Shown here: positions 1-14,454 of the stretch, in pieces
How positions within the stretch are numbered: the first letter of the stretch is position 1
How the letters are laid out: every line of letters begins with the position of its first letter
From: Spirulina sp.
GTDB taxonomy: Bacteria > Cyanobacteriota > Cyanobacteriia > Phormidesmidales > Phormidesmidaceae
NCBI GenBank assembly: GCA_044070495.1
Contig: JBIPSI010000008.1
Location: 32,001 to 96,000, forward strand
Length of the DNA stretch: 64,000 bases
Direction: 5' to 3'
The notes under the pieces: generated by a model
What the model was told of the DNA's origin: nothing
Seen by the model: the letters and a program-made list of their open reading frames with translations, nothing else
Databases searched by the model: none
Translations under genes and position numbers: made by a program

Positions 1-1
1 G

Positions 2-1207
2 GGGAATTAGATGATCGTAAAAATCATCTGCGCTTTGGGCAAGGGCGTGACGAGCACCACCTAGATCTTGATAGGCGCTATAGGTAACTCGGTTTCGCTC
101 TCGGTGCTTCCATAGCTGCAACAACACAAATTGCAATAATGGTAGGGCGGCGGGTTCTCCCAGAACATCGGTAATAAGGTGATCAACCACCCCCTCTTCA
201 AACTTCAATCCAACCTGTTCGGCGGGGGCTGAAATGGCTTCCCTGAGTTCACCTGCGTCTAGGGGTAGCACACGCACCTGGGAATTTCTGAATCGTTCCC
301 CAAAGGTAGAGGTTGGGGCTGGCAATTCTGACAATGTGGAAATTTGGTCTTCAAAATCGCTCCGCATGGTGAGAATCAAATAGTCTTGAACGGAGGACGA
401 AGACTGAATTAGGGCCACCAGGCTATTGATGAAGGCTATGCGAAGCTGTTTATCTTGGCAAAGGGTAAAGGTTTCTTCAAACTGATCAATCACAATAACC
501 GCTGATTGTTCTCCGGCAATTTGCCTAATCAGGTCACTTACAGTCGTTGGATTTTTCTCGATCAGCCTAATATTTTGACTAATCTGATCAGCATTGTGCT
601 GTTGATTTGGGGTGAGCGTTCGCATCAGATTTTCTAGTGGATTACTGCCAGGAACTAGCGGCGGAAAGTAGTACCATTGGTGGCTATTCGGCAATGCCTC
701 AGCCTTTAATTTGGGCAATAATCCACCCCGAACCACCGAGGATTTACCGCTTCCCGATGCCCCCACAACGGCTAATAGGGGACTGGTTCCCAGGGCATCT
801 ACAAGCTGGGTTACGAGGCGCTGACGACCATAGAACCGATGGGCATCTTTTTCCTTAAAAGCCTCTAGCCCTAGGTAGGGGCAATCGGAATCATCTAGAG
901 ATGGAGAAAGCTCGATATCAAAGTTAGCTAGGTCAGAGTCAATAACCGGATAGCCTGCCCTTAGAAGCACAGAAACCCAATAGTCTAGAAGGCTTTGAGC
1001 CGCGAGGCGATCATCATCATTATCAATCACGGCTCCCGTTTCTCGTCCTTGGCAAATAAACGTCTTGATGTCAGAGAGAAGTTCTAAGTTCTCACCCTCT
1101 TGACGGTGACGTTTGAGCAGTTCTGTATAAGCTAGACGGAGGGCCGCAAAGCTAGGGAAACGATCTGGGGCATGGTCTGACGTAAACTCAGTTGCAAGAG
1201 AACTCAT
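2..1207 (-). CDS. nSTAND1-type STAND NTPase, N-terminal part (runs off left edge; not in ORF track)
   Basis: Manual translation from the ATG at 1207, which overlaps the CHAT gene stop (ATGA): MSSLATEFTSDHAPDRFPSFAALRLAY...CPYLGLEAFKEKDAHRFYGRQ...VVGASGSGKSS (Walker A)...VIVIDQFEETFTLC (Walker B)...LTMRSDF...LPLLQFVLLQLW. The frame is open to the window edge. Confidence 0.9.
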   Translation of the reverse strand, partial: MSSLATEFTSDHAPDRFPSFAALRLAYTELLKRHRQEGENLELLSDIKTFICQGRETGAVIDNDDDRLAAQSLLDYWVSVLLRAGYPVIDSDLANFDIELSPSLDDSDCPYLGLEAFKEKDAHRFYGRQRLVTQLVDALGTSPLLAVVGASGSGKSSVVRGGLLPKLKAEALPNSHQWYYFPPLVPGSNPLENLMRTLTPNQQHNADQISQNIRLIEKNPTTVSDLIRQIAGEQSAVIVIDQFEETFTLCQDKQLRIAFINSLVALIQSSSSVQDYLILTMRSDFEDQISTLSELPAPTSTFGERFRNSQVRVLPLDAGELREAISAPAEQVGLKFEEGVVDHLITDVLGEPAALPLLQFVLLQLWKHRERNRVTYSAYQDLGGARHALAQSADDFYDHLIP

Positions 1208-2838
1208 GATAGTTTCTCCATAACTGGGGCTAGGGCTGTTCGGATATCTCGCAATTCTTCACAGAGGTGAAGTAGAGCCAGATCGACTTGGACAAAGACA
1301 TCTAAGGCGGCGGCATAGTATCGATAAAAGCTGGCTCTTACTTTGGTCGGTTCTTTGAGGGTGAGGGCATCACACAAGCCTTGACGACACTGCTCTAGCC
1401 TCGTTACCTCTGCACCCAATTTACCCTGACATAGGCTGTTCACTTTTTCCTGTAAGTCAGATAAATCGTTGAGATTATCTTCATCTAAAACACTGGGAGC
1501 AAAGCCATTGGCAAAGACTCGAAGTTCAGAGTCAACTCTTTGCCAAGCGTCGTGCTCTTTAACAAAATGACCCAATTGATCACTAATACTGGCTAGGGAT
1601 GAGAGGCCCAGTTCAAACTTGGCGAGATGGTCAGATTCAGTCATATTTTCAGCAATAATCTTATCCCTAACTACACTTAAGTTCCTAATCAAATCAGATA
1701 ATCTCAAGGTTTTGGCGATGCTGGTTAGATTGGCATTTAGGCAAATTGGCTCCGTGGATAAAATGCGGCTCAAGCTACGTAGCGCTTGATTGATGTCGTG
1801 TTCACTGGACTGACTAATGGCGGATTCTAGCTTGTCCCGAACCGTCTCTAATTCCTTGATCCATCTAGGTGTCTCATCGTCATCTTGGGAATGCTGGTCA
1901 ACTAGGCTGTGCGCCTTTACGATGCTACTTTGCAGGTTCATTTCATACTCTGAGAGCATCATAAGACCCTCTTCATCGCCTATGAAACGCTGTTTGTAGC
2001 GAAAAATAGGCCAATAGCATTTTGTTTCTATTGCCTGGAGTAGATCGTGGAGTTGCTTGTAATAGCTCAGAGTTTCTACGCGGCTGTAGACGACTTCAAG
2101 ATCAGCCTTAAAAATTACGACAGACTCATAGACGGCTGGATTGGACAATAGGGTTTCTAGGGCAACAAAACCCTCGGTTAGCTTTTCACCCTCTGGCTTG
2201 CCACAGGCATCTACAAATGGTGTCAGCGATTCTTTGATATAAATCCTAGGGATGAGGGTATTTGCCACGTCCTGCGAACTAGATATTTCAATGTCGCGTC
2301 TATGACTATTATTTTGCCCTTCTACTCTCATGTAGAGCAATCCCTGATCATGGGCCTGGGAAATGGAACATCCAGCTCCTAGTCCTAAATAAAATCCTTT
2401 GGCGTAGGCAATGGCATCCTGATCAGGAATCGCCCGACTCATGCCAATGACGTAGTTGATGTGTTGAGCAATGGCCTTTGCCTGATCAACAGAATAGCAA
2501 GCATTGAGGACAATACATTCCACTGTATTTCTGATGATTTCAGACTGAAACAAGTCCGACAATACATCAGTTTTAATAAGGAGCGGTTGGCCACAGTCTT
2601 GTTCTAATACTAGGCCCGATTCCCCCGTGCCATGACCACAGAAGTGAACAATGCGGGGTCTGATTTCCAGAATAGCTCGCTGTAGATCCTCCCATCGTGC
2701 TGCTGTCCGTTCTTCTAAATCGAACTGATCTCGATATTTGGCTTGGGCAAGAAAGTCCCGAATATCGCGAAGTTCTTGGTTCAGTTTTAGGACTGAAGTG
2801 CCGTCTGGATTCGCTGCAATGGCGAGGATAGTTTTCAT
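1204..2838 (-). CDS. CHAT-domain (caspase-HetF-like) protease with unknown C-terminal helical domain
   Basis: ILAIAANP start, VHFCGHG (His), VLNACYS (Cys), YVIGM motifs; about 330 aa helical C-terminus with YYKQLHDLL. Confidence 0.88.
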   Translation of the reverse strand: MKTILAIAANPDGTSVLKLNQELRDIRDFLAQAKYRDQFDLEERTAARWEDLQRAILEIRPRIVHFCGHGTGESGLVLEQDCGQPLLIKTDVLSDLFQSEIIRNTVECIVLNACYSVDQAKAIAQHINYVIGMSRAIPDQDAIAYAKGFYLGLGAGCSISQAHDQGLLYMRVEGQNNSHRRDIEISSSQDVANTLIPRIYIKESLTPFVDACGKPEGEKLTEGFVALETLLSNPAVYESVVIFKADLEVVYSRVETLSYYKQLHDLLQAIETKCYWPIFRYKQRFIGDEEGLMMLSEYEMNLQSSIVKAHSLVDQHSQDDDETPRWIKELETVRDKLESAISQSSEHDINQALRSLSRILSTEPICLNANLTSIAKTLRLSDLIRNLSVVRDKIIAENMTESDHLAKFELGLSSLASISDQLGHFVKEHDAWQRVDSELRVFANGFAPSVLDEDNLNDLSDLQEKVNSLCQGKLGAEVTRLEQCRQGLCDALTLKEPTKVRASFYRYYAAALDVFVQVDLALLHLCEELRDIRTALAPVMEKLS

Positions 2839-2874
2839 GGCACGGTGCTGAATTCAAGGTCGAATTCGATCAGG

Positions 2875-5800
2875 CTAGGTATTCCCTATCTGGGGCCAAG
2901 ATTGGGACTCATTGGGGCTGGGTTCCAATGGTTGGTTAGATAGTTGCAGGCCCAAAAATCCCACAACGAGGAACACAACCGCCGCCACAATCCACCACAG
3001 CAGCGGATTGCCAGAGGATTTTTCTTCCCCTGAGTCGGCAGACCCAACGGGATCATTCGTTACAGAGGCAGGCCCAACGGGGCCAGGAGTCCCAGCATTG
3101 GGGGATGTGGAATTACCTGGAACTTCGGAGGTTTCATCCTGCGGAGGTTGAGGACTAGAAGATTTTGGGATGGACAATTCTGGACTGGATGATTCTGGAC
3201 TGGGTGATTCTGGATTCAGGGGTTCTGGGGTAGACGATTCTGGATTAGGGGGTTCTGGGGTGGACGGTTCGGCGGTGGGCAGGATACCCGTCAGTGCGCT
3301 TTGGGCCATGTCGCCCAGGGCTTTTACCCCCACCGGATCGCTGAAGTAGACCAGGTGATCGCAGGCGACTTCCACCATGGCGGGGGCGGGCTGGCGACCG
3401 GAGGGGATGGCTTTGATGCTCTCCACCGTGACGGCCAGGTCGTTAGGAATGCCGAAGAAAGGCAGTTCCATCAAGCCCTTCAGTCGCTCCATCAGCCGTT
3501 GCCGCAGGTTGCCCTGGGGTTGGTCGGCGGGGATGAGGGTGATATTTCCGGCAATCACGGTGTAGGGAATGCCGGGATCGGGGTTGGCCGCCAGTTGTTT
3601 GATGAAGTCGGAGTTGGGATCCATTTGATCCAGCGTGACATCGATGGTTTCGATGCCTTCGACGCCCTTGGCCAAGAGTTTGAGGGCGCTGGACACAAAC
3701 ACGATGGGGAACGTCACCTTAGACAGGCCGTTCAGCACCAGGGTCAGCAGGGTCGTAATGCCCGCCACAGTTTGGGGCCAGGGGGATCCGCCGCTGGGGG
3801 TGCCCAGCAAAATCAGGTGTTGAACGACCTCGTTGCCGCCCTCGCGCTCAATGAACCAGCGGGACACCAGCCCCCCCATGGAGTGGGCAATGATGTGCAG
3901 GGTTTTGCCGTGGTTGGGGCCAAGGCCAACGCTTTCCAGCCGTTGTTGGAGTCCCTGGGCATGGGTTTCGATGGCGGTATTCAGGCTCTCGTAGTCGAAG
4001 GCCAGCACCAGGTCGTAGCAGTCTTTTAGGGGTTTGGCTTCCCCAGGCAGGGCGGCCACGGCGGTTTCGATGCTGGGCACCATGCTTTCGGTGTCGCCGA
4101 TGATGCCGTGGATGTAGAGGGCGATGCGCTGGGCCTGGGCGACGCGGCTGGCCATGGCGGCGGGGTCGGTGATGTAGGTGACTTCGCCGTTATTGACCTC
4201 GGCCACCCTGAGGAAGGGATACTCAAAGGGCAAGCCCAGCTTTTGCCGGACAACTTTTTGGAAGAAAATCCGAATCGCTCCACCCAGGCTGCGCTTCCCT
4301 TCACTGATGGGTTCGGGCAGGCGGTCGATGGTGATCTCGGTTTGGTTGCCTTTGCCGATACCTTGGCCCAAGGGCAGATAAAACTCCCCATCAAAGGCCA
4401 CAGGCAGCACCATGGCATCGGGTTCTAGGGCCACATTGGCCACCAGTTTGAGGGGATTTTCGGCGGTAACGGCCTCCCGATTTTGCACGTCCCGCAGTTC
4501 CAACGCACTCAGGCCCGGATCGGTGGCGCGGCTGGCGGTGAACTGAAACGCCTGGGTTTGATCCCGCAGCAGGGGCGGCAAAATGTGGCTCCCCAAATCG
4601 CGGGTGGATTGGGAAACGGTGGTGAGCCGCGCATTAGCGGAAAAGCCCTCCGGGTTCTGGATGGTGATGCCCTGCATCAAACTCACCTGGGGCGCAGCGG
4701 CAGAGAGGGCCACGGTTTCCCTAGGGCGCACGGTGGTAATGGTGATCTGGCTGGTCATCCAGTCGTCGGTGGCATCTTCGTCCTCGTCGTCGCCAATGTC
4801 GCGGGTTTGGATGCGCGTCATCAGCCGATTCAGCATTCCCTTGGGCGGCATGGAACGGGTCACGTCCTCTCGATAAAAACCGCGCAGTTCGCCCTGGAAG
4901 AGGGTGAGTTTGTCCTGCTCCAACAACCGTCCATCAAAGGCGGTGGGGCTGACGATCAGCTTCAGCACATCCTTATATTCCGTAATGCCCTGCTCCCACA
5001 GTTCCTTGGGCATCGTCGCCGAAACCAATGCCCCTTGGCGGGCATAGGCTTCCTGGCCTGGATCTAGCCACACGCCCCCGGCCTCAAACAGGGCCGCACT
5101 GATGGCGAACCGCTCGGTCAAATCCAGCACGGTGCAATAGAGCCGTTGGGAACTGGTATTGGTGAGCTTGAGCTGAAATTTGGGCGCTTTGTTATTGGCG
5201 TCATAGCTCAACCGCAGGTCGCTTTGGTGAACGCTTTGGTCGGGCAGAACCACCTCCATCCGTACGGCATGGGCAGGAATGCGGCTGGTGGGAGAGCCTT
5301 GCAAATCTAGGGTGGTCGTCCAGCGGGCCAGGTGTTCTAGCAAACCCAGGGTTTCGCGGGCCTTGGCGCTGTCGAATCCCCGCACAGGCTCCAGCAAAAC
5401 CCGATCATCAACGGGCCGTTTGATGCGATAGTTCCCATCCTGGGCGACCACTTGAAACGTAGCATCGACGGCATCTTCCACGACTCTGACATACAGGGAC
5501 GCAGGCTGGAAGCTACTGCCCATAATCGCCCCACGCAGCAGCCCTAACCCAGCCTCATCCCCCAACAGATGCACCCCCATGGGCGGCAAGGGCAAAGCTT
5601 TGACGACGGCCTTAAAGCTCATCTCCGGCGAAAGGGGTTCGATGCCCGTGATTTGCACGCGGCTGAGGGTGGGCTGCACAGCGGTAACGGTCGCCGTACC
5701 CAGGGGCGTACCTTGACCTAAATCGCCATCCGCCATATCCGCCGGAAACAGGGAAAAAACCGTAGTTTCTCCCCCCTTAGGCTGAGGAATACCGTGGATA

Positions 5801-6738
5801 CTGCCGCCATCAATCACCCAGCCCTCCTGGCGATGGCAACTTACCAAAAAATGGGGACTCCTAGGCCGAATTGCGCCGCCAAGGAAGGGCTGATCCAAAT
5901 CTTCGGGAACGCTGGCCTCTAGCTGGGGAGCCTGGGCCGAAACCCGACTTTGCACCAGGGCCGAGGTGCGCTTAAACAGGTCGCGATAGGTGAGGCTGCC
6001 GTTGGCCTTTTGCAGGGTCTCTAGCAAAAAGTAGGAAAATGCTCCCCGGTGCTCGCCATCGCTGGAATATTCCTTGGCTTCTTCAATGTCTTGGCAGGCG
6101 GCCAGCAACACATGGCGACCCTGGGGAATGCGCCAACCGCTGACGGCCCCCAGGCTGCGGGTTACGGGCGGGGCCGCCGGAATCGCCTCTGGGGTCACAA
6201 TAAAGCTGTCGATGGGGCGCTGACGTTTATCCGTGGGTGCCCGCCGCACCGATTCGCTGGACACGGCATCGCCACGGGTGCCAGAACCAGAATGGCAACA
6301 GTCCAAAATCACCACCATATGGGGATGGTTGGCGGCCACGTCGGCAATCAGCTTGGCCAGTTCCTTGTCGGCCAAATCCCAACTGCCCGCGCAACGGCTG
6401 TCGTAGCACACCAGGGTTTCATCCAGCCGATCCGGCTCCAGGTGCCAAAATTCCTCCGGCGCTGGCTCCTGGGAACCATGCCCCGCATAGAAAAAGAGGG
6501 CCACATCCCCTTCCCGCGCCTGCCCCAGGTGGCTGCGAAAGCCCTCAATTACCGCCTGTCGGGTGGCTTGCTCGTTTAGCAGCACTTTTAGGTGGAGGTT
6601 GCCGTTGTCTTGGCCCACGCGCCCCTCTAGGTAGGCTTGCATGGCGGCGACATCGTTGGTGCAACCCTGCAAATGGGGCACATAGGAGGTGGGATCGTAT
6701 TGGTTAAGGCCGACGAGGAGGGCGTAGGTGTTGGTCAT
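2875..6738 (-). CDS. Caspase-like (peptidase C14) protease fused to alpha/beta-hydrolase (lipase-like) domain, Pro/Ser linker and C-terminal TM helix
   Basis: YALLVGLNQY, LQGCTNDV, FFYAGHGS (His), ILDCCHSG (Cys); later LYIHGIIG, IIAHSMGGLVSR (nucleophile elbow), LGTPSGGS, CDHLVYF; C-terminal LLWWIVAAVVFLVVGFLGL. Confidence 0.9.
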   Translation of the reverse strand: MTNTYALLVGLNQYDPTSYVPHLQGCTNDVAAMQAYLEGRVGQDNGNLHLKVLLNEQATRQAVIEGFRSHLGQAREGDVALFFYAGHGSQEPAPEEFWHLEPDRLDETLVCYDSRCAGSWDLADKELAKLIADVAANHPHMVVILDCCHSGSGTRGDAVSSESVRRAPTDKRQRPIDSFIVTPEAIPAAPPVTRSLGAVSGWRIPQGRHVLLAACQDIEEAKEYSSDGEHRGAFSYFLLETLQKANGSLTYRDLFKRTSALVQSRVSAQAPQLEASVPEDLDQPFLGGAIRPRSPHFLVSCHRQEGWVIDGGSIHGIPQPKGGETTVFSLFPADMADGDLGQGTPLGTATVTAVQPTLSRVQITGIEPLSPEMSFKAVVKALPLPPMGVHLLGDEAGLGLLRGAIMGSSFQPASLYVRVVEDAVDATFQVVAQDGNYRIKRPVDDRVLLEPVRGFDSAKARETLGLLEHLARWTTTLDLQGSPTSRIPAHAVRMEVVLPDQSVHQSDLRLSYDANNKAPKFQLKLTNTSSQRLYCTVLDLTERFAISAALFEAGGVWLDPGQEAYARQGALVSATMPKELWEQGITEYKDVLKLIVSPTAFDGRLLEQDKLTLFQGELRGFYREDVTRSMPPKGMLNRLMTRIQTRDIGDDEDEDATDDWMTSQITITTVRPRETVALSAAAPQVSLMQGITIQNPEGFSANARLTTVSQSTRDLGSHILPPLLRDQTQAFQFTASRATDPGLSALELRDVQNREAVTAENPLKLVANVALEPDAMVLPVAFDGEFYLPLGQGIGKGNQTEITIDRLPEPISEGKRSLGGAIRIFFQKVVRQKLGLPFEYPFLRVAEVNNGEVTYITDPAAMASRVAQAQRIALYIHGIIGDTESMVPSIETAVAALPGEAKPLKDCYDLVLAFDYESLNTAIETHAQGLQQRLESVGLGPNHGKTLHIIAHSMGGLVSRWFIEREGGNEVVQHLILLGTPSGGSPWPQTVAGITTLLTLVLNGLSKVTFPIVFVSSALKLLAKGVEGIETIDVTLDQMDPNSDFIKQLAANPDPGIPYTVIAGNITLIPADQPQGNLRQRLMERLKGLMELPFFGIPNDLAVTVESIKAIPSGRQPAPAMVEVACDHLVYFSDPVGVKALGDMAQSALTGILPTAEPSTPEPPNPESSTPEPLNPESPSPESSSPELSIPKSSSPQPPQDETSEVPGNSTSPNAGTPGPVGPASVTNDPVGSADSGEEKSSGNPLLWWIVAAVVFLVVGFLGLQLSNQPLEPSPNESQSWPQIGNT
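3165..3270 (-). repeat. Imperfect 15/30-bp coding tandem repeats encoding (P-E-S-S-x/P-E-P-x-N) linker
   Basis: gattctggat(t)...ggggttctggggt repeated; protein PEPPNPESSTPEPLNPESPSPESSSPE. Confidence 0.6.
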
Positions 6739-6763
6739 GGGAATCTGCCAGGGGGATTAGTTG

Positions 6764-6810
6764 GGTGGGGAGGTGGGGAGGTGGGAAGGTGGGAAGGTGG
6801 GAAGGTGGAA
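6764..6810. repeat. 8-bp short tandem repeat GGTGGG(G/A)A, about 6 copies, intergenic
   Basis: ggtgggga ggtgggga ggtgggaa ggtgggaa ggtgggaa ggtggaa. Confidence 0.85.
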
Positions 6811-6870
6811 TAGATATTACGTTTGGGGGGAAGGGCTGTATGCTCATCACGGTCTGGTGTGTTTTCTGAT

Positions 6871-7899
6871 TTATTTCAAGGCTTTGATGATTTCTCGCAG
6901 CCGCTTATTGAGGTCTAGGAATCTGTCCATTTGTTGCTGACTTAAAGCAACGCCTAAATCTTTCATTTCTTTGAGATCGATAAAACTCTGAAGATCTTGA
7001 AACTTAAGTGCATCGCCAACGAAGGATTTCATGGCATCCCTTTGCGCCACTCTCATCGCACTATCCTCATCACCTTGGGCATGGTTGAGAATAGTGGCTA
7101 ATTGTTGATTCTTGCGAAGCTCCTGATCATCGCCGGAGGCTACAAGGGCAGGGACAACTTTGATAACCACGTAGTCGTCCTGCATGGGCTGTTCTTTATC
7201 GGCAATAGAAAAGTATTCTAGATGTAAACCCCGAAGCTGATACTTAACGGCTTCAACGGGTTGGTTAAACAACACGTAGGCACCGCATCGAAGTTTGGCT
7301 TCACCCTCTGGAAAAAGGCTGTAAAAATCAACCTGACTCTTGAAGACAACCTGATTTTGCTGTTGTAGTTCAGCCAGTTTAGCCAGCCCAAGTACGGCGT
7401 TTCCGACAATGCCAGAAAATGGGATTAACGTGGGAAAGACTGCTCCAAATCCTGCATTGACCTGCCTTAAGGCCGCCAAAACAGAATCGTTGTCTTGCAA
7501 TCCCTTATCGACTTCAATAATGGAAACCTCAAGCCAAACACGATTTTTAAGGGAATGATTTTCTCTGCCAAAAATATGCTCAAACTCTAGGTTGTCTTGT
7601 GGAGAGCCTTCCTTGATATCTATCCCAAAGAAGTTGATGGCTTCCGTGGTGGGTTCATTACCATACTTAACCCGCGACTGAACCAAAAGATCGTTGCCGC
7701 TGCGATTCTCATCATAGTTTTCTCTGATCAAGAAGGTTTCTAGGGTAATCGTAAACGATCCCCCTTCTTCCACCAGTTTGTCGGTTGGAGCTAGGGGTGA
7801 AAAGGCTCTTTGGAGTCTGGCACCTTGGGGGTTATCTAACTCGGCTAAGGGCACAAACCAGCACGTATCTTTGTTAATATCTCTGGAACGAGTTTCCAT
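6871..7899 (-). CDS. Hypothetical protein (beta-rich core, central hydrophobic hairpin, C-terminal helices)
   Basis: Long ORF in operon; probable ATG at 7899 after GGAAGG; central segment GFGAVFPTLIPFSGIVGNAVLGLAKL. Confidence 0.8.
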   Translation of the reverse strand: METRSRDINKDTCWFVPLAELDNPQGARLQRAFSPLAPTDKLVEEGGSFTITLETFLIRENYDENRSGNDLLVQSRVKYGNEPTTEAINFFGIDIKEGSPQDNLEFEHIFGRENHSLKNRVWLEVSIIEVDKGLQDNDSVLAALRQVNAGFGAVFPTLIPFSGIVGNAVLGLAKLAELQQQNQVVFKSQVDFYSLFPEGEAKLRCGAYVLFNQPVEAVKYQLRGLHLEYFSIADKEQPMQDDYVVIKVVPALVASGDDQELRKNQQLATILNHAQGDEDSAMRVAQRDAMKSFVGDALKFQDLQSFIDLKEMKDLGVALSQQQMDRFLDLNKRLREIIKALK

Positions 7900-8000
7900 A
7901 GTCCTTCCCAATGGGTTATGGGGTATTGCTAGATCCGTCAAATGTGATAAAAGGTGTCTGACTGTTTCCTTGCGGCTTTAGCCAGACACCTTTCCTAGAT

Positions 8001-10103
8001 TTAGATTCCTAGTCGTTCGTAGGTTTGTGGGCCAACGACACCATCAGCACCCAGGCTATATTTACGTTGAAAGTCTTCAACGGCTTTCTTCGTTCCGGGG
8101 CCAAAGACACCATCAACCATTACCGCAATTCCATCGGCTTTAAGGGCAGCTTGCACCTTGCTGACCCATTCTCCCTGCATGTTGGGCGTAGTCAATTTCA
8201 AAACAGGGCGACTTGCTACCGAAGCCTGAGGACTAAAGCCACCTTTGGCTAGGGCTAGACCTTTTTGAACAGCTTCCGTAAAGACATCAAGTCCGTGACT
8301 ACCTCCATTGACATACTTGCGGGCCTTGGCATAGTCCTTCATAGCAAGGGCAGCACGGATACCCATTTCCTTGCTCTTGAGGAAGAGAGCTAGTAAATCC
8401 GCTGCAATTTGAGGATCGTTAGCGAGTTCAGGATCGTCCACAAGACGATTTCCTAGACCCAGTTCAGCACTAAATTTCTGGTAGTTGTGCTTGCCCGTAA
8501 GTTGAACAAACCCCCGACCTTTGTATTTATCGCCATCTCCAACGGCACTATTTCCTAGGTCTGATCGAGTGTCATATAGCCCAAAGGGACGACCACCAGG
8601 GGCCGTATTGTATTGGGATTGATACTCGCTAATGGGAACAAAACTACCCGTTTCTGCGCGAATGGTTCCTAGGGCCATCAGCACCATATCAAGATCCCCT
8701 AAGCCCACTTTTTCCAGTGACCTTAGAACAGGTGGCAAATACTTTTCAAGATTGCCCCGTGGGACTCCTTGGAAAATTTGAGCAACGAGATCAACGGTAA
8801 AGATTCCGGTATCCACCGTCCTTTTAGGAGGCTGATAGGCATAACCCAAAGCTTTTAGCGTCATTGGGCCTGCAACCCCATCGGCGGTTAGGCCAGCTTG
8901 GTTTTGAAAAGCAATGACAGCGGCCTTCGTTTTGGGGCCAAAGTCGCCATCGGGCTGACAGAAAAGGAGTCCTTTGGCAACTAAAATTTTCTGTAACTCC
9001 AGGACTTCTAGGCTGGCCTGATCCTCTTTTAAGGTAACATTCGCAACAGGTTCAGGACTCGCTGGTGGTTCACTAGGAGGCTGATTTACAGGAACATCAG
9101 CAACTTTAGCTTCAGGCTTTTGGGCTTCTGGTGTGGGCGTAGAAACCGGATTTGAAGCACCCTCCGTCTGCATGAGTTTGGCTAGGGTGTCTGGGCCAAC
9201 AACGCCATCCGCGTTAAGGCCCATTTTTTCCTGGACTCGCTTTAAAGCTGCTTCGGTACCTGGGCCAAAGTCGCCATCGGCGGTAATGCTTTCTCCGTGC
9301 TTAATGAGAGCCTGCTGCAATTTCTGAACATCAGAACCCTGCAAAGAAGGCCGAGTGAGTTTCAGTGTCCGAGGATTATTATCCCAGGGCGCAATGGCAA
9401 AACCACTGACTGGAGATTGGTCTAGACGGCTGTGGGTTTGTCCACCCCATTGACCATCTTCTGCAATTTTGTCTCCCGGATTATTCTTGTTCCAAAGCTG
9501 TTGGAATGCTTTCACTGCCGTTGCGCGAATATCAATGCAGGGCTGACCAACATAGTCAAAATGCCAGGGATCATTGCCACCAAACCATTTCCAACCGTGG
9601 CGCTCTAAAACAGGTCGCCATACTTGATAGTCAGGCACATCTAAGGCGATTCCGCTTTGATGATTACTTTTTCCTGGCAATGCAACCACCGTTAAGCCGC
9701 AGCCTCCAATACCATTCCTACGATTGTAAAGAAAGAGCTGCTGGGCAATAGTTCGGTAGGCAGAAGTAATTCGTAAAGGTTGCCCCCGATCTGCGATTAC
9801 TTTCCGTAAGGACTCCTTAGCCGCAGGCTGTAGAAAAGGGAAAGCAGCCTGATCGAGTTGTACATTCAGATCATCGAAACTCACCATAATATTAGGGGAG
9901 ATGAGATTCATCTGATAGATAAGCTGTTGGGAAAGCCCATTGGCAATGGCGGAGGAACAGCCTGGTGCTTTACTCAACAAAACTGGTGTCAGAGATCGAG
10001 TGCGAATAATTTCCGAAGTCGCTTCAACCTGATTAATTTCAGCTTCAGACTCAAACTCAAACTCTTTCAAAAGAACTTCTGTGTCGATAGTTAGAGTTGT
10101 CAT
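8001..10103 (-). CDS. Multidomain peptidoglycan hydrolase: M15 (VanY-like) Zn peptidase + PG-binding domains + GH19 lysozyme/chitinase-like domain
   Basis: SAYRTIAQQ, PGKSNHQSGIALDV, DPWHFDY (M15); three or more DG(D/V)FGP-T PG_binding_1 motifs; AETG, YKGRGFVQLTGKHNY, VNGGSHGL (GH19); ATG at 10103 after GGAG. Confidence 0.88.
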   Translation of the reverse strand: MTTLTIDTEVLLKEFEFESEAEINQVEATSEIIRTRSLTPVLLSKAPGCSSAIANGLSQQLIYQMNLISPNIMVSFDDLNVQLDQAAFPFLQPAAKESLRKVIADRGQPLRITSAYRTIAQQLFLYNRRNGIGGCGLTVVALPGKSNHQSGIALDVPDYQVWRPVLERHGWKWFGGNDPWHFDYVGQPCIDIRATAVKAFQQLWNKNNPGDKIAEDGQWGGQTHSRLDQSPVSGFAIAPWDNNPRTLKLTRPSLQGSDVQKLQQALIKHGESITADGDFGPGTEAALKRVQEKMGLNADGVVGPDTLAKLMQTEGASNPVSTPTPEAQKPEAKVADVPVNQPPSEPPASPEPVANVTLKEDQASLEVLELQKILVAKGLLFCQPDGDFGPKTKAAVIAFQNQAGLTADGVAGPMTLKALGYAYQPPKRTVDTGIFTVDLVAQIFQGVPRGNLEKYLPPVLRSLEKVGLGDLDMVLMALGTIRAETGSFVPISEYQSQYNTAPGGRPFGLYDTRSDLGNSAVGDGDKYKGRGFVQLTGKHNYQKFSAELGLGNRLVDDPELANDPQIAADLLALFLKSKEMGIRAALAMKDYAKARKYVNGGSHGLDVFTEAVQKGLALAKGGFSPQASVASRPVLKLTTPNMQGEWVSKVQAALKADGIAVMVDGVFGPGTKKAVEDFQRKYSLGADGVVGPQTYERLGI

Positions 10104-10737
10104 AATCACTCCAAAAAGTGAGCAGTGCACACTGAAGCTTCCTTAAAACAAAACACGTTCTAAGAAAGGTCATTTATAGGATTAGTAAGCTGACCAAAAG
10201 GGCCGAATCTCAATTACATCAAGCGAATCACTGAGGGGCGAAGTGAAGCTTGAGGCAATTAACAAGGCTTATCCTGCCTCTGCATTAGCCATGGCCTATG
10301 CGAAACAGAGCTACTGATACTTATCATTCGGCAGAACGTAACGACCAAGAAAGCGATACTGCCATTCCAACCTCAACTACCATATTGCGCTTAAGAAGCT
10401 CACATATAGGAAAAGTGACAATATTCTTTATATGTCGAACTGAATTAACAAATCGCCTAAGTTCAACGATCTCTGTTCAGCCAATATCCTGAGCCTGATC
10501 CATAGTCGCAATGTGATACGGACGGAGCGTAGGCTGTCATTCCATCCTAGGCAGAATCTGAGCAGCGTAGCCCCGCTTTAGCTATCTGTTCCCTTGCTTG
10601 ATCCTTCCTTGAAGTACGTCTTCTCTCCGTAGAAATAGTGATAAACTGATCCTCGAAAAATAAAGAAAATCTTAATTGAAACGCCACACCTTGGGATGGG
10701 GCCTAGGGCAAATCTGGCTAACAACTGCATTCGGTGG

Positions 10738-12075
10738 ATGGAGCAAGTGACAACAAACGAGTCTCACATTACGGCACTCCTCGATGGCTTCGGTCGCTTT
10801 GGGGTGGATTTGGGCCTAGAGCGCATCGAGGTGCTGCTGGGTGCCCTGGGCCATCCCCAAAAACGGGTACCGATTCTCCATGTGGCCGGGAGCAACGGCA
10901 AGGGTTCCGTCTGTGCCTACCTGTCCTCGGTGCTGGGGGCGGCGGGTTACCGAGTTGGGCGCTATACCTCGCCCCATTTAGTGAGTTGGCGGGAGCGCAT
11001 TTGCATTAACGATCAGCTTATTGAGGCCGCTGATCTGCGTCGTGTCCTGGATCGGGTGATTGCCGCCATAGATCCGGCCCAGCCCTCGCCTACCCAGTTT
11101 GAGGTGTTTACGGCGGCAGCTTGGCTGTATTTTGCCGAATCCGAGGTGGATGTGGCGGTGATTGAGGTGGGCCTGGGCGGACGGCTGGATGCCACCAACG
11201 TGGTTGAAGCGCCCCTGGTGAGCGTGATCACCTCCCTCAGTCGGGAACATTGGCAGCGCCTTGGCCCTACCCTGGCAGACATTGCGCGGGAAAAGGCGGG
11301 CATCCTCAAACCCGGTCGGCCTGCGGTGGTTGGCCCCCTGCCCCCAGAGGCGGAGGCGGTGGTGAAGGCGCGGTTGGCGGAGTTGGCTTGTCCGACGGTG
11401 TGGCCCGCCCCAGCCCAGCCCGTGGGTGACAATCAGGCCCGCTACGAGACTGCTCAGGACGGCTTAACCTATCCGCTACCTTTTCCGGGGGAACACCAGC
11501 TCACCAATTCGGCCCTGGCGGTGGAGGCTCTGCTGGAACTGCGGCGGCAGGGATGGGAGATTTCTGATGCGGCGATTGTGCAGGGCATGGGGTCGGCCCG
11601 GTGGCCCGGTCGGTTGCAGTGGACAACCTGGCAGGATGACGCTGGCCAGTCTCACCCATTGCTGATTGACGGTGCCCACAATCCCGCTGCGGCTGAGGTG
11701 TTGCGCCGTTATGTGGATACTCAGTTAACCAAGGCTGATGAGTTACGCCCAGCAATGCCCTCAACGCCCGATCAGAGTGTGGCCTGGTTGATGGGAATGC
11801 TGACGACGAAGGATCATCGCGAGGTGTTTGAAGCCCTGCTGCGACCAGGGGACAGGCTGTACTTGGTGCCTGTGCCGGAACACCTGTCAGCGGATCCCTC
11901 AGACCTAGCAGCTCTTGCCAAATCCATCTGCCCCGCTCTGTCCTACTGTGGAACCTACGCCGATCTGCACCATGGTCTAACGGCCTTGGTAACGGAGGCC
12001 GCATCGCTCAAGGTCTTCTGTGGGTCGCTGTACCTGATTGGCCATTTCTTCGCCACGGAATCCCAGGCTGAGTAG
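10738..12075 (+). CDS. folC: Folylpolyglutamate synthase/dihydrofolate synthase
   Basis: HVAGSNGKGS, YTSPHL, EVGLGGRLDATN, WPGRLQ, DGAHN, GSLYLIG; start uncertain (10696-10747). Confidence 0.95.
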   Translation: MEQVTTNESHITALLDGFGRFGVDLGLERIEVLLGALGHPQKRVPILHVAGSNGKGSVCAYLSSVLGAAGYRVGRYTSPHLVSWRERICINDQLIEAADLRRVLDRVIAAIDPAQPSPTQFEVFTAAAWLYFAESEVDVAVIEVGLGGRLDATNVVEAPLVSVITSLSREHWQRLGPTLADIAREKAGILKPGRPAVVGPLPPEAEAVVKARLAELACPTVWPAPAQPVGDNQARYETAQDGLTYPLPFPGEHQLTNSALAVEALLELRRQGWEISDAAIVQGMGSARWPGRLQWTTWQDDAGQSHPLLIDGAHNPAAAEVLRRYVDTQLTKADELRPAMPSTPDQSVAWLMGMLTTKDHREVFEALLRPGDRLYLVPVPEHLSADPSDLAALAKSICPALSYCGTYADLHHGLTALVTEAASLKVFCGSLYLIGHFFATESQAE

Positions 12076-12143
12076 CGTGACCTGAGTTCGGGATAAGCCA
12101 AACGCTGCAATCTTGAGAAACCTGCTTCCAGCTTGCACCTCAG

Positions 12144-12410
12144 CCCTCACCCTAAATCCCTCTCCCGTGAGGAGAGGGACTTTGAACCTTCTAGCTCCCC
12201 TCTCCTCCCTGGGCTACTAAGTACACACATCTTGCTTTCATGCCGCAAGTCCTTGGAGATCCCCCTAAATCCCCCTTTTTAAGGGGGACTTTGACTCCGG
12301 CTCCCCCCCTTTTTAAGGGGGGCTCGGGGGCATCGATTCCCTGTATCGTCTACGTTAAGGACTTATGCGTACTTAGTAGCCTCCCTGGGAGAGGGGCTGG
12401 GGGTGAGGGC
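12144..12410 (+). repeat. REP-like double-hairpin repeat type A (CCCTCACCCTAAATCCCTCTCCC...GGGAGAGGGGCTGGGGGTGAGGG), interrupted by a MITE
   Basis: Same repeat at 23230-23498 (inverted) and 51220-51367. Confidence 0.8.
12214..12379 (+). mobile_element. MITE family 1 (166 bp), TIR CTACTAAGTAC, 10-bp target duplication CCTCCCTGGG
   Basis: ctactaagtacaca...tgcgtacttagtag; direct repeats at 12204-12213 and 12380-12389; near-identical copy at 23262-23426. Confidence 0.85.
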
Positions 12411-12415
12411 CAATT

Positions 12416-13711
12416 TTACCGGGCATCCCATTCAGCGGCGGCATCGGTGATGGCTTGGTCTACGGTTTTTTGGCCCAGCATGGCGGCTTGTAGGTTGTCG
12501 TAGAGGATGGCTTGTAGTTCCTTGATGCCGTCCATGGCGGGGATGAGGACTTCGGCTTGGCCCATTTGTCCGGCGCTGACGGAGCGGGCCTGTTCTACCC
12601 CTGGGGCGGCGCTGTCGTTGACCTGGAAGTACTCGTCTTGCAGGGCGGCGGCAGTGGAGGGTAGCACGTTAGCGGCCTTGGCAAAGGTGAGTTGGTTGGC
12701 ATCGTTGGTTAAATACAGGGCAAAGTCTAGGGCGGCATCGGGCACGTCGCTGCTGGCGGGGATGACCAGATTCATCACGGCCACGTTCTTTTTGCCCGTA
12801 TCGCCGCTAATTTGGGGGGCGCTGCTGGTGACGGCGGCAATGTCGGGGGCGTTGGTTTCGATGGTGGGGAAGAATTCGGCCCCGGTGGACAGCAGCGCTA
12901 CTTCCCCCGCCTGGAACAGTTCGATGGCGCGACGGTGGCCCTGGGTTAGCACTTCCCTAGGCAGCAGGTCATTGGTGTACAAATCCGTCCAGTATTGGAA
13001 AACGGCCTTGCCTTCGGGAGTGTTAAACGCCGCCTTGCCCTGGTCATCGACCAAATCCACCCCCATCTGCACGAAGGATTGCAGCACATCGGCGGAATCC
13101 TCTGGCACAAAGGTGGTGAAGTAGGCGTATTTTCCGGTTTTATCCTTCACCGCCTGGGCCACGGTGGCCAGTTCCTCGTAGGTGGTGGGAGGCTCTACCC
13201 CGGCTTGCTCTAGCAGGGTTTGGTTGTAAAGGGTGACGTTGGTGGTCAGGTACCAGGGAATGCCAAAGCTCTGGCCGTTGAGGGTGTTGGCCTGCCAAAT
13301 GTTGGGCAAATACACCGCCCGATCCGCCTCGCTGACCTTGTCATCCAGGGGCAACCAGGCATTGCGGCTGGCCAGTTGGGCGGCAAAGTCGGGGTTGAGG
13401 TTCACCACATCCGGGGCGGTGCCAGCGGTGACGGCGGTGAGGATTTTGCTCTGCATATCGGCCCAGGGCACATCCACCCAGCGCACGGTCACACCGGGAT
13501 TTTCCGCCTCGTACTGGGCAATTAGCCCATTGAAATAATCGGTGAAATCCGGCTGAAGCTGCATCGTCCAGAACTCGACCTCTTGGCCCCCCGCTGCCCC
13601 GGTGCCTGACCCCGACCCGCTGGGCTGCCCACCGCCACAGGCGACGAGCCAACTGAGCAGCAAACCCGTGAGGGCAAGAAGGGTGTAGCGAAGCCAGGAA
13701 CGTCGTTTCAT
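12416..13711 (-). CDS. ABC transporter sugar-type substrate-binding lipoprotein
   Basis: Lipobox LVAC, VEFWTMQL, APDVVNLN, GIPWYLT; SBP family 1 pattern. Confidence 0.9.
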   Translation of the reverse strand: MKRRSWLRYTLLALTGLLLSWLVACGGGQPSGSGSGTGAAGGQEVEFWTMQLQPDFTDYFNGLIAQYEAENPGVTVRWVDVPWADMQSKILTAVTAGTAPDVVNLNPDFAAQLASRNAWLPLDDKVSEADRAVYLPNIWQANTLNGQSFGIPWYLTTNVTLYNQTLLEQAGVEPPTTYEELATVAQAVKDKTGKYAYFTTFVPEDSADVLQSFVQMGVDLVDDQGKAAFNTPEGKAVFQYWTDLYTNDLLPREVLTQGHRRAIELFQAGEVALLSTGAEFFPTIETNAPDIAAVTSSAPQISGDTGKKNVAVMNLVIPASSDVPDAALDFALYLTNDANQLTFAKAANVLPSTAAALQDEYFQVNDSAAPGVEQARSVSAGQMGQAEVLIPAMDGIKELQAILYDNLQAAMLGQKTVDQAITDAAAEWDAR

Positions 13712-13860
13712 GGGGGTTGGGGATTAGGAAGTGGGGATTAGGGGTTATGGCAACACATCAAAGCCCTGTCTGGCGAGGGCTAGGCTGCGATAACCTATCC
13801 TACCGCTAGACTGGAATCACCAAAAACTAGAATCACCAACGACAAAAATCACCCCAAAAA

Positions 13861-14454
13861 TCACCAACGGCGCGGTTGAAAGGTGGCATCGTTGAGGATG
13901 ACAACGCTCTCCCCCGATTGCGCTATCACAAACAGCCCTTGGCGGTAGGCGTAGCGGGCTACATCATCGGGCACCACCATTCCGGCCACGGCACCCATGG
14001 CGCGGACATCGCCATAGCGAGGCATCAGTCGCTTAAATTTACTCAGCCGTTCCAAATGCTCGTCCACATCGGTCTGGGTGAGTTTGCTTTTCGCTGCCAC
14101 CAAAATGGCCTCAGTGGAGTTCATGACCAGCAGGTCAATGTCAATGCCTTCATCCCCCCGTCGAGCCGAGGCTTCAGGATAAAACTCGTGAATGGTAATT
14201 CCAAAAGGCTGAAATAGGCTCGCGATCACAGGCTTTACCTGCCACTGCACAAATTCACCGACACAGTTGCCCCACTTGTCCAGTGACTCATTTAGCGGCT
14301 GGTTTTGTGGCTGCAACAGGTATGCCGTTGCCCGAAATCGCTGATCAGTTTCCTGGAATTGTCGTTCGATTTCCTGGAATCGCCGCTCGGTTTCCTTTTG
14401 GGCCTCTGCCAGTTCGCCCAAAATTCGCCAGACTTCTTCGGATGTGGTTGCCAT
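13861..14454 (-). CDS. DUF3782-like coiled-coil + PD-(D/E)xK-fold protein (paralog 1)
   Basis: QKETERRFQE repeats, IDIDLL...VAAKS, RYAYRQGLFV; paralog at 40903-41454. Confidence 0.75.
   Translation of the reverse strand: MATTSEEVWRILGELAEAQKETERRFQEIERQFQETDQRFRATAYLLQPQNQPLNESLDKWGNCVGEFVQWQVKPVIASLFQPFGITIHEFYPEASARRGDEGIDIDLLVMNSTEAILVAAKSKLTQTDVDEHLERLSKFKRLMPRYGDVRAMGAVAGMVVPDDVARYAYRQGLFVIAQSGESVVILNDATFQPRRW

Follow-up and report, generated by a model that had tools for sequence, protein, structure and literature searches.

A five-gene locus of Spirulina sp. as a candidate split-gene variant of cyanobacterial STAND/caspase conflict systems

Can five neighbouring genes, coding for a cell-wall hydrolase, a protein of an unnamed family, a caspase-lipase, a CHAT protease and a STAND NTPase, work together to kill the cell that carries them? 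The question is raised by a locus of Spirulina sp. at one end of a stretch of 64,000 nucleotides (hereafter the window, G000:C8:32001-96000; the genome assembly has 5.3 Mb and 56.7% GC). To our knowledge, STAND/caspase conflict systems of multicellular bacteria have been widely predicted and almost never tested, and the agent that finally kills the cell is mostly not known. From its sequence, the locus appears to be a variant of these computationally predicted systems, plus an unnamed family which we call HP (the "hairpin" protein of a first-pass annotation). On balance, we lean towards a STAND system with two proteases which recurs in cyanobacteria, would occur here in a split-gene variant, and would kill the cell via the destruction of its own envelope. 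In a cyanobacterium that forms filaments or aggregates, this would likely be abortive infection or altruistic death of another kind.

Five open reading frames (ORFs) of the minus strand fill positions 2-10130 of the window: 8001-10130, 6871-7941, 2875-6738, 1204-2838 and 2-1207, the last one being open at its 3' end. The first-pass annotation, made from the sequence alone, had described them as co-oriented and closely spaced, and the ORF coordinates bear this out. The likelier start of the PG (peptidoglycan) hydrolase gene is ATG 10103, with GGAG 6 bases upstream, rather than GTG 10130. The family alignment places the HP start at ATG 7899, which shortens the ORF from 356 to 342 amino acids. 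With these starts the gaps between genes, from the hydrolase to the STAND gene, are 101, 132, 36 and -4 bp. The last value corresponds to the ATGA shared by the CHAT stop and the STAND start, already noticed in the first-pass annotation and read directly in the sequence. None of the gaps contains a terminator-like site in the coding strand.

The caspase-lipase (2875..6738, minus strand, 1287 amino acids) consists of an orthocaspase (residues 5-279), a beta-sandwich middle region (about 286-872), a DUF7379/LCAT-like alpha/beta-hydrolase domain (874-1049), a Pro/Ser-rich linker and a transmembrane (TM) anchor (about 1246-1264). Pfam gives 79 bits for Peptidase_C14 (cut-off 21.4), 52 bits for DUF7379 (cut-off 33) and 21.6 bits for the LCAT-like domain (cut-off 21), the PGAP1 score being under its cut-off; the generic caspase model of PADLOC also matches. 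The caspase motifs YAGHG (at 84) and DCCHSG (at 146) and the lipase serine motif AHSMGG (at 951) are present. Regular expressions find the His motif in 17/17 homologs, and the Cys motif and AHSMGG in 16/17 each. The C-terminal helix reaches a Kyte-Doolittle value of 2.69, and 9 of 18 homologs have such an anchor. The middle region (590 amino acids) is modelled as tandem beta-sandwich (Ig/PapD-like) domains with an acidic disordered loop. Its fold matches are generic Ig, PapD and transglutaminase-type beta-sandwiches (best Z 8.1, TM-score at most 0.16), so they assign it no function. The name DUF7379 was not found in the literature searched, and a review lists orthocaspases with an Abhydrolase domain (PMC7475262).

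We also considered the two-gene EACC1-caspase system (Kaur 2020), where a 5' gene for the single-TM EACC1 domain precedes a caspase of the EACC1-associated type, and rejected it: NCBIfam caspase_w_EACC1 gives 63.1 bits against a cut-off of 140, and the 5' neighbour is HP, a 342-amino-acid beta-sandwich protein without a Pfam match. Pfam includes an EACC1 model.

The partners of the caspase-lipase in other cyanobacteria speak for a functional link. We have compared 13 full-length loci from 12 other genomes (loci are designated by L numbers). In 11/13 a STAND gene is either fused to the caspase-lipase or lies downstream of it, in the same strand and at a distance of at most four genes. This partner combines Peptidase_C14 and nSTAND1, usually with WD40 repeats, in 10 cases by Pfam and in L093 by BLAST alone. 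It directly adjoins the caspase-lipase in L085, L086, L087, L089, L092, L093 and L096, is separated by one gene in L095 and by three in L088, and is truncated in L090 (392-amino-acid ORF). In L091:2241-11414 (-), an uninterrupted ORF of 3057 amino acids reads caspase-lipase-caspase-nSTAND1, a natural fusion of proteins which are separate elsewhere. L094 is an exception, with a second caspase, a CHAT protein and a NACHT protein (Pfam) with a CHAT_N-like N-terminus (BLAST only), and L097 has no STAND partner in the stretch fetched. A leaderless M74-like/PG_binding_1/GH19-like hydrolase is found 3' of the STAND gene in 4/13 loci; Pfam recognizes it in L086, L087 and L093, and BLAST in L092. These loci point to a general design in which an executioner-type caspase-lipase is combined with an nSTAND1 NTPase that carries a protease; a wall hydrolase often joins them.

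The expectation that homologs of the five genes co-occur elsewhere therefore holds in part. The caspase-lipase, the protease-bearing STAND and the leaderless PG hydrolase recur in cyanobacteria, in shuffled order and with the first two fused once; the five genes are not a conserved unit. Comparative genomics thus supports a probable functional link among these three components, and does not support a fixed five-gene unit.

The STAND gene begins in the window (2..1207, minus strand, its 5' 402 codons) and extends 1.3 kb to the left of it; the left flank was retrieved, and the full gene (G000:C8:30664-33207) codes for 847 amino acids. The C-terminus, which the first-pass annotation wanted to see, proves to contain a single TM helix (about 557-575) and a coiled coil, then about 230 amino acids without family. 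They follow an N-terminal domain (1-109) and the nSTAND1 domain (110-513). On the full protein, nSTAND1 (PF20703) scores 369.1 bits against a cut-off of 27.1 (E 5.1e-110); Walker A (GASGSGKS at 149) and Walker B (VIDQFEE at 239) are intact, and invariant in a 4-sequence alignment. The NLR-like NTPase is thereby confirmed. Its C-terminal part is common to only three other proteins, all of about 847 amino acids. No PDB sequence matches at E up to 0.01, and in PADLOC-DB v2.0.0 the 402-amino-acid part in the window only matches mad8 (E 3.5e-4) and mad3 (E 2.1e-3), over 18-25 residues around the P-loop, and no model specific to a known anti-phage STAND system (Avs and others). The full protein (P0006) also matches phrog_923, of unknown function (E 9.7e-69, residues 103-622): Relatives of this NTPase are also phage-borne.

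The CHAT gene (1204..2838, minus strand) codes for a mini-CHAT protease module (residues about 1-175) followed by a C-terminal region of 370 amino acids, mostly uncharacterised. Pfam CHAT (PF12770) gives 32 bits where the cut-off is 24, and the match is limited to profile positions 107-262 of 289. The motifs are FCGHG at 66 and LNACYS at 111, with His69 and Cys114 invariant in a 6-sequence alignment. Both caspase-clan proteases of the locus have intact His/Cys motifs, in agreement with the first reading of the sequence. The module matches PDB 8tl0_A, "CHAT domain-containing protein" (E 9.8e-17), which we take to be SAVED-CHAT. In an evenly drawn sample of 401 cyanobacterial genomes, the mini-CHAT (170 amino acids) is found in 61, as a widespread N-terminal cassette joined to C-terminal parts of diverse kinds, for example TIR-AAA_35, pentapeptide repeats or open frames up to about 1470 amino acids. 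Several genomes have at least three matches, three being the most candidates that were scored in any one genome. An example of these fusions is L017:12061-14361. The C-terminal part of the window's CHAT has a match only in the window's own genome among the 401, and is shared with 6 relatives in a large protein collection. One CHAT relative and one STAND relative are found on the same 12,316-bp contig, and L008 also carries the pair, which is rare. At E up to 5, Pfam shows nothing but sub-threshold noise for both termini of STAND, for the C-terminus of CHAT, for the middle region of the caspase-lipase and for the N-terminus of the PG hydrolase.

Some STAND proteins in loci that contain HP have an N-terminal caspase (L007, L019, L021) or an N-terminal CHAT (L016), so the CHAT and STAND pair of the window can be seen as their split equivalent. 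The window would then be a split version, in which CHAT is a separate gene. Its STAND has the 109-amino-acid N-terminal domain in place of the relatives' caspase, and a TM helix and C-terminal domain in place of WD40.

The PG hydrolase (8001..10103, minus strand) has 700 amino acids from ATG 10103: an N-terminal region of about 90 amino acids, a VanY/M15 domain, PG_binding_1 repeats and a GH19-like muramidase/chitinase domain. Pfam recognizes PG_binding_1 (E 7.8e-49, three stretches pass) and VanY/M15 (38.6 bits, cut-off 25); GH19 is at 21.8 bits, under the cut-off of 25.5. This half is backed by the PHROG endolysin/chitinase profiles phrog_181 (E 2.5e-33) and phrog_14712 (E 2.3e-17), and the whole protein matches a phage endolysin family, phrog_2649 (E 2.3e-65). 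The motifs are SNHQSGIALD (at 155) and PWHFDY (at 188) for M15, IRAETG (at 490) and GRGFVQLTG (at 538) for the GH19-like domain. The description as a dual cell-wall hydrolase is thus upheld, by Pfam for one half, by PHROG profiles and motifs for the other. Read from ATG 10103, the protein has no N-terminal hydrophobic segment. Such a leader is absent in 16/16 PG hydrolases examined beside HP or STAND genes, even when read from the longest ORF. The sole segment over the threshold among the 16 is that of the window ORF from GTG 10130, which straddles the likelier ATG start. Leaderless and similar to phage endolysins, these enzymes should need a membrane breach for access to the wall.

The endolysin likeness led us to consider a phage holin-endolysin cassette or prophage, which we reject: there is no holin-like protein, HP has no PHROG match, and the flanks are not of phage type.

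From these components the following pathway may be proposed. The membrane-inserted nSTAND1 NTPase would sense a trigger and oligomerise; its C-terminal domain beyond the TM helix suggests that the signal may be envelope or periplasmic. The oligomer would activate the translationally coupled CHAT, which would replace the caspase fused to the STAND N-terminus in the commoner versions. CHAT would in turn activate, or act with, the tail-anchored orthocaspase-lipase, whose alpha/beta-hydrolase domain would attack membrane lipids. The breach would admit the leaderless endolysin-like hydrolase to the wall, and the cell would lyse. HP (C2-like, with a hydrophobic loop) might be an accessory at the bilayer, helping cytoplasmic wall hydrolases to get at or across the membrane. 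We infer the cascade, its trigger and the outcome in lysis alike. Several steps have precedents. Kaur et al. (2020, PMC7159879) propose a pairing of caspases with alpha/beta-hydrolases, effectors directed to PG, and proteolytic release of effectors in conflict systems. Likewise, Steens et al. (2023, bioRxiv 10.1101/2023.06.23.546230) show a CHAT protease that activates another caspase by cleavage, the phenotype being abortive.

HP (6871..7899, minus strand, 342 amino acids) has no match in four HMM libraries, Pfam (even at E up to 5), NCBIfam, PADLOC and PHROG, and was rightly listed as an unknown protein in the first-pass annotation. It has no recognisable catalytic motif. A word-indexed search gives 25 relatives, and a profile search of 1.84 billion representatives gives 192 clusters at E up to 0.001, 53 of them at E up to 1e-30. 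Among the 150 clusters listed, a length of about 320-360 amino acids prevails, some being shorter fragments; the full-length ones match nearly the whole profile. The family has three subfamilies. For the two distant ones, a hint in the ESM Atlas (commonest in Pseudomonadota) is the sole taxon information. No match is found by tblastn on plasmids with the proteins P0002, P0058 and P0121, nor in a metagenome search with the single protein P0061.

In the AF2 model (pLDDT 71.8, pTM 0.72), a predicted C2-like beta-sandwich (about 58-266, numbering of the 356-amino-acid ORF) is followed by long C-terminal helices. A low-confidence insertion in the sandwich holds the most conserved and most hydrophobic stretch of the family, G-A-x-F-P-x-x-x-P-[FY], with a hydropathy maximum of 1.63 at residue 168. 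The best Foldseek match is the C2 domain 2ep6 (E 7.6e-4). In VIA-align, C2 domains and C2-containing (lipid-acting) enzymes make up most of the top rows (Z 6.0-7.2, 105-137 residues aligned), and the structure search of the ESM Atlas also gives C2 clusters, with low TM-score. Pfam C2 is not matched, and a comparison with PDB sequences at E up to 1 only gives two chance-level rows (E 0.47 and 0.91). We consider the C2-like fold of the model as a lead.

There are 37 cyanobacterial HP loci. The HP ORF was recovered in 35, so L026 and L028 are left out of the neighbour counts. A PG hydrolase lies at most three genes from HP in 11/35 loci, and these enzymes span at least five catalytic kinds: M15/VanY, M15_3, GH19-like, GH24 phage lysozyme, and Amidase_2/glucosaminidase/M23. 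The neighbour is an M15/GH19-like enzyme, as in the window, in L006-L008, and a GH24 phage lysozyme with PG_binding_1 in L012, L014 and L020. L009 has a VanY protein, two Amidase_2 proteins and a glucosaminidase-Amidase_2-LysM-M23 protein. In L017 and L018, HP is flanked by Peptidase_M15_3 on one side and a PG_binding/GH19-like protein on the other; L019 has an M74-like/PG_binding/GH19-like enzyme, and L021 also has a PG hydrolase within this distance. The hydrolase family in L012 and L018 is inferred from a scanned cluster mate. Caspase, CHAT or STAND/AAA_35 genes are found in the fetched flanks of 17/37 HP loci, and a caspase-lipase in 7/37, in four gene orders.

Other HP contexts are varied. 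Those of L010 and L011 look housekeeping. In a marine Leptolyngbya-like clade (L022, L029, L030, L033, L034, L035) the gene order is Cys-rich protein, Exo_endo_phos protein, HP, RPE65 protein; the pair upstream of HP consists of a Cys-rich protein of about 165 amino acids without a Pfam match and a 343-amino-acid protein of the endonuclease/exonuclease/phosphatase family. Tandem duplicates of the HP gene are found in L039:2159-4513 and L041:5968-8142. In L019:12799-14946, a protein-arginine deiminase (PAD, PAD_M; E 9.3e-124), which may be a further effector of such systems, lies directly downstream of HP, between the PG hydrolase and the caspase-nSTAND1-WD40 gene. The contexts of a distant subfamily are mixed: a calpain-type protease in three loci, Schlafen/AlbA_2, and methyltransferase with ADP-ribosylglycohydrolase and UvrD-nuclease. 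The calpain-family cysteine protease (Peptidase_C2, E 2.1e-25, Pfam run on the L110 cluster representative) is divergent beside HP in L110:4274-5713, L111:1-504 and L115:4274-5713 (-).

A bolder idea can be formulated for the HP family, which we consider rather improbable as a whole. HP would be a membrane-breaching helper, a stand-in for a holin: a cytoplasmic C2-like lipid binder, whose conserved hydrophobic loop inserts in the membrane, perhaps after a caspase-family protease removes the C-terminal helices. Leaderless endolysin-type enzymes would thereby reach the wall. Together with the STAND-controlled cascade from CHAT to caspase-lipase, this would make an apoptosome-like execution pathway in two steps, membrane then wall, distinct from gasdermin pyroptosis and from phage lysis.

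A number of observations weigh against a single death system, or against the role given to HP in it. The five-gene order is rare: full synteny is found in one other genome (L008). A second such genome is probable, since relatives of HP, PG hydrolase and caspase and relatives of CHAT and STAND are found on two short NCBI contigs. In the sample of 401 genomes, HP is present in 3 (including the window's own) and the caspase-lipase (residues 291-1130) in 15; HP is absent from 14/14 other caspase-lipase genomes, both occurring together in the window's genome only. No adaptor domain shared by STAND and CHAT was found (hhalign probability 0.1). The alpha/beta-hydrolase is a putative lipase, by a weak LCAT/PGAP1 likeness. 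The C2 likeness of HP is modest (Z about 7, no chain at Z of 8 or more), and its hydrophobic segment is borderline for membrane insertion (Kyte-Doolittle 1.5-1.6). For a distant HP subfamily with 24 metagenome loci, 50 representative neighbour genes were selected from 17 loci, and none of the 44 which were scanned is a PG hydrolase. The link of HP with hydrolases is therefore confined to the cyanobacterial subfamily, and HP does not generally depend on a hydrolase. Finally, the genes differ in GC content at third codon positions (GC3), and modules of differing history mean that their adjacency may be in part accidental growth of an island.

In L008 the STAND frame (L008:16503-18997) is split into ORFs of 249 and 581 amino acids, with the junction at about 17250; either a frameshift, decay to a pseudogene or a faulty assembly would account for it.

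The alternative which best survives is that of a conflict island, with three independent modules side by side, each acting alone: HP together with the endolysin-like hydrolase, the orthocaspase-lipase as an orphan, and a two-gene system of CHAT and STAND. We judge it possible, if doubtful. GC3 is 0.41 in the PG hydrolase, 0.46 in HP, 0.44 in CHAT and 0.42 in STAND, against 0.70 in the caspase-lipase and 0.68-0.75 in the flanking genes. This mosaic is repeated in the two nearest GC-rich relatives (L006, L007) and absent in L008, whose genome has 48% GC. It suggests that at least three pieces of different history make up the cluster, or that the genes have different codon constraints; the pieces could have been acquired one by one, or rare codons could be selected in toxic genes. 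Independent modules would also agree with pairs which recur alone (L009 for hydrolase and HP; L012, L014, L019 and L020 for HP beside other hydrolases), with the promiscuity of the mini-CHAT and its many fusions, and with the caspase-lipase genomes that have no HP. On the other hand, they do not account for the protease-STAND close to the caspase-lipase in 11/13 loci, once within a single ORF, nor for the PG hydrolase beside this pair in four. The caspase-lipase in seven HP loci with four gene orders also argues for association, as do the common orientation, the short gaps and the lack of coding-strand terminator-like sites between the five genes.

That the lysis programme is developmental or social, instead of directed against phages, seems unlikely to us. 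The locus might then serve a sacrificial death which fragments filaments, the release of public goods or DNA, or the killing of neighbours once the cell contents are out, and a periplasm-facing STAND C-terminus might read an envelope or extracellular cue. The STAND protein does have a TM helix and a 270-amino-acid C-terminal part instead of the WD40 of its relatives, kept in three other proteins and in L008. There is also an envelope theme in the locus: a tail-anchored lipase, PG-binding repeats, a C2-like protein. Cyanobacterial death types with early peptidoglycan loss have been reviewed (PMC7475262). Nevertheless, no developmental regulator or signal gene adjoins the locus among its flanking genes (folC-like, sugar-binding protein, PGA_cap), and the patchy, island-like spread of HP (3/401) and caspase-lipase (15/401) better suits accessory immunity than core development. 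The weakest alternative, that HP is an immunity or inhibitor protein which silences the neighbouring PG hydrolase in toxin-immunity style instead of a membrane-active helper, is in our opinion very improbable: HP tightly adjoins PG hydrolases in 11/35 loci and lacks a catalytic motif, but its partners come from at least five unrelated catalytic families, a misfit for a specific active-site inhibitor, HP and hydrolases are leaderless, unlike periplasmic immunity proteins, distant members have no hydrolase nearby, and HP has a predicted C2-like beta-sandwich as its core, with a loop that is conserved, hydrophobic and rich in Pro.

The favoured reading, a split-gene STAND system with two proteases, may be compared with known systems. 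The first-pass annotation did not recognise the combination as a named one. PADLOC-DB v2.0.0 gives only the generic caspase and chat models for the five window proteins, apart from the weak P-loop matches to mad3 and mad8, and no system-specific match. We have found no name for the gene combination in the literature consulted; the supplementary neighbourhood tables of Kaur (2020, 2021), which were outside the search, may list it.

The closest likeness is to the conflict systems of Kaur et al. (2020, PMC7159879; 2021, PMC8195603). According to passages of both papers, these contain STAND NTPases (nSTAND1 is named in 2021), caspase-superfamily peptidases "always" paired with an alpha/beta-hydrolase, and lysozyme or PG-peptidase effectors, with the idea of proteolytic release. 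In contrast to them, the window has no MoxR, vWA, VMAP, GAP1 or EACC1, a single tail-anchored protein carries both its caspase and its hydrolase, and no EAD-type adaptor common to its STAND and CHAT was found. Neither the HP family nor an nSTAND1 protein with a TM helix was found described in those passages. A MoxR-vWA (VMAP/iSTAND) ternary system is rejected: there is no MoxR AAA+ or vWA domain in the five proteins or in the scanned flanks.

The Apaf-1-like caspase-STAND-beta-propeller proteins of cyanobacteria (Nature 2026, PMC13581612) resemble the caspase-nSTAND1-WD40 partners of the caspase-lipase in other genomes: both have an initiator protease on an oligomerising NTPase. They differ from the window, in which the protease, a CHAT, has a gene to itself; the STAND there shows a TM helix and a C-terminus without repeats in place of WD40, and Pfam classes the NTPase as nSTAND1. 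In the type III-B CRISPR/CBASS hybrid in which SAVED-CHAT acts on PCaspase (Steens et al. 2023), there are also two caspase-clan proteases per locus, with CHAT upstream of the caspase, and the abortive phenotype is that of this system. Unlike it, the window has no SAVED domain, cyclic-oligonucleotide signal or CRISPR; the proposed activator is a STAND NTPase and the executioner carries a lipase.

Phage holin-endolysin cassettes also offer a parallel, in that the leaderless modular enzyme of the window, with M15, PG-binding and GH19-like parts, must await a membrane breach. Unlike these cassettes, the window has no small TM protein of the holin type; the breach would come from the protease-controlled lipase, from HP, or from both. 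Johnson and colleagues are said to have described in 2022 bacterial gasdermin systems which pair a caspase-like protease with a pore former, often with a STAND or repeat sensor. The window likewise has a caspase-family protease beside a membrane-directed candidate death effector. Its membrane attack would, by contrast, be enzymatic (lipase), followed by wall hydrolysis. A gasdermin system was rejected, since none of the five proteins matches a gasdermin model in PADLOC. In the fold searches with HP, C2 domains fill the list.

The locus and its relatives suggest an execution chain which can be tested: an NLR-like NTPase, an initiator protease (fused, or a separate CHAT), a caspase-lipase at the membrane and a leaderless endolysin at the wall. 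The natural variants are ready-made controls: the 3057-amino-acid fusion, the replacement of caspase by CHAT and of WD40 by a TM sensor, and the hydrolases of different families. HP adds an unnamed family of 192 representative clusters, whose association with cytoplasmic wall hydrolases is reproducible among cyanobacteria. If the proposal is true, this would be a bacterial counterpart of the initiator and executioner caspase logic of apoptosis, and might supply cyanobacterial biotechnology with lysis modules that can be controlled.

The flanks consist of ordinary genes: folC-like, a sugar-/solute-binding protein, PGA_cap and a Na/H exchanger. No phage structural genes are found in the scanned flanks. 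A comparison with two genomes of the same family gave no clean empty site: in one of them the folC-like and PGA_cap genes are 31 kb apart and in another orientation, and in the other one PGA_cap was not found. Positions 1-14000 of the window match no Rfam family. Consensus scans give 9 promoter-like sites versus 8.9 expected, which is at chance, and 6 terminator-like sites versus 12.8 expected, below chance. Between the PG hydrolase gene and the divergent folC-like gene there is an AT-rich spacer of 592 bp (10104..10695) without a long ORF, in a region whose GC is 0.44 (9501-10500); it is a probable candidate for the promoter region of the cluster.

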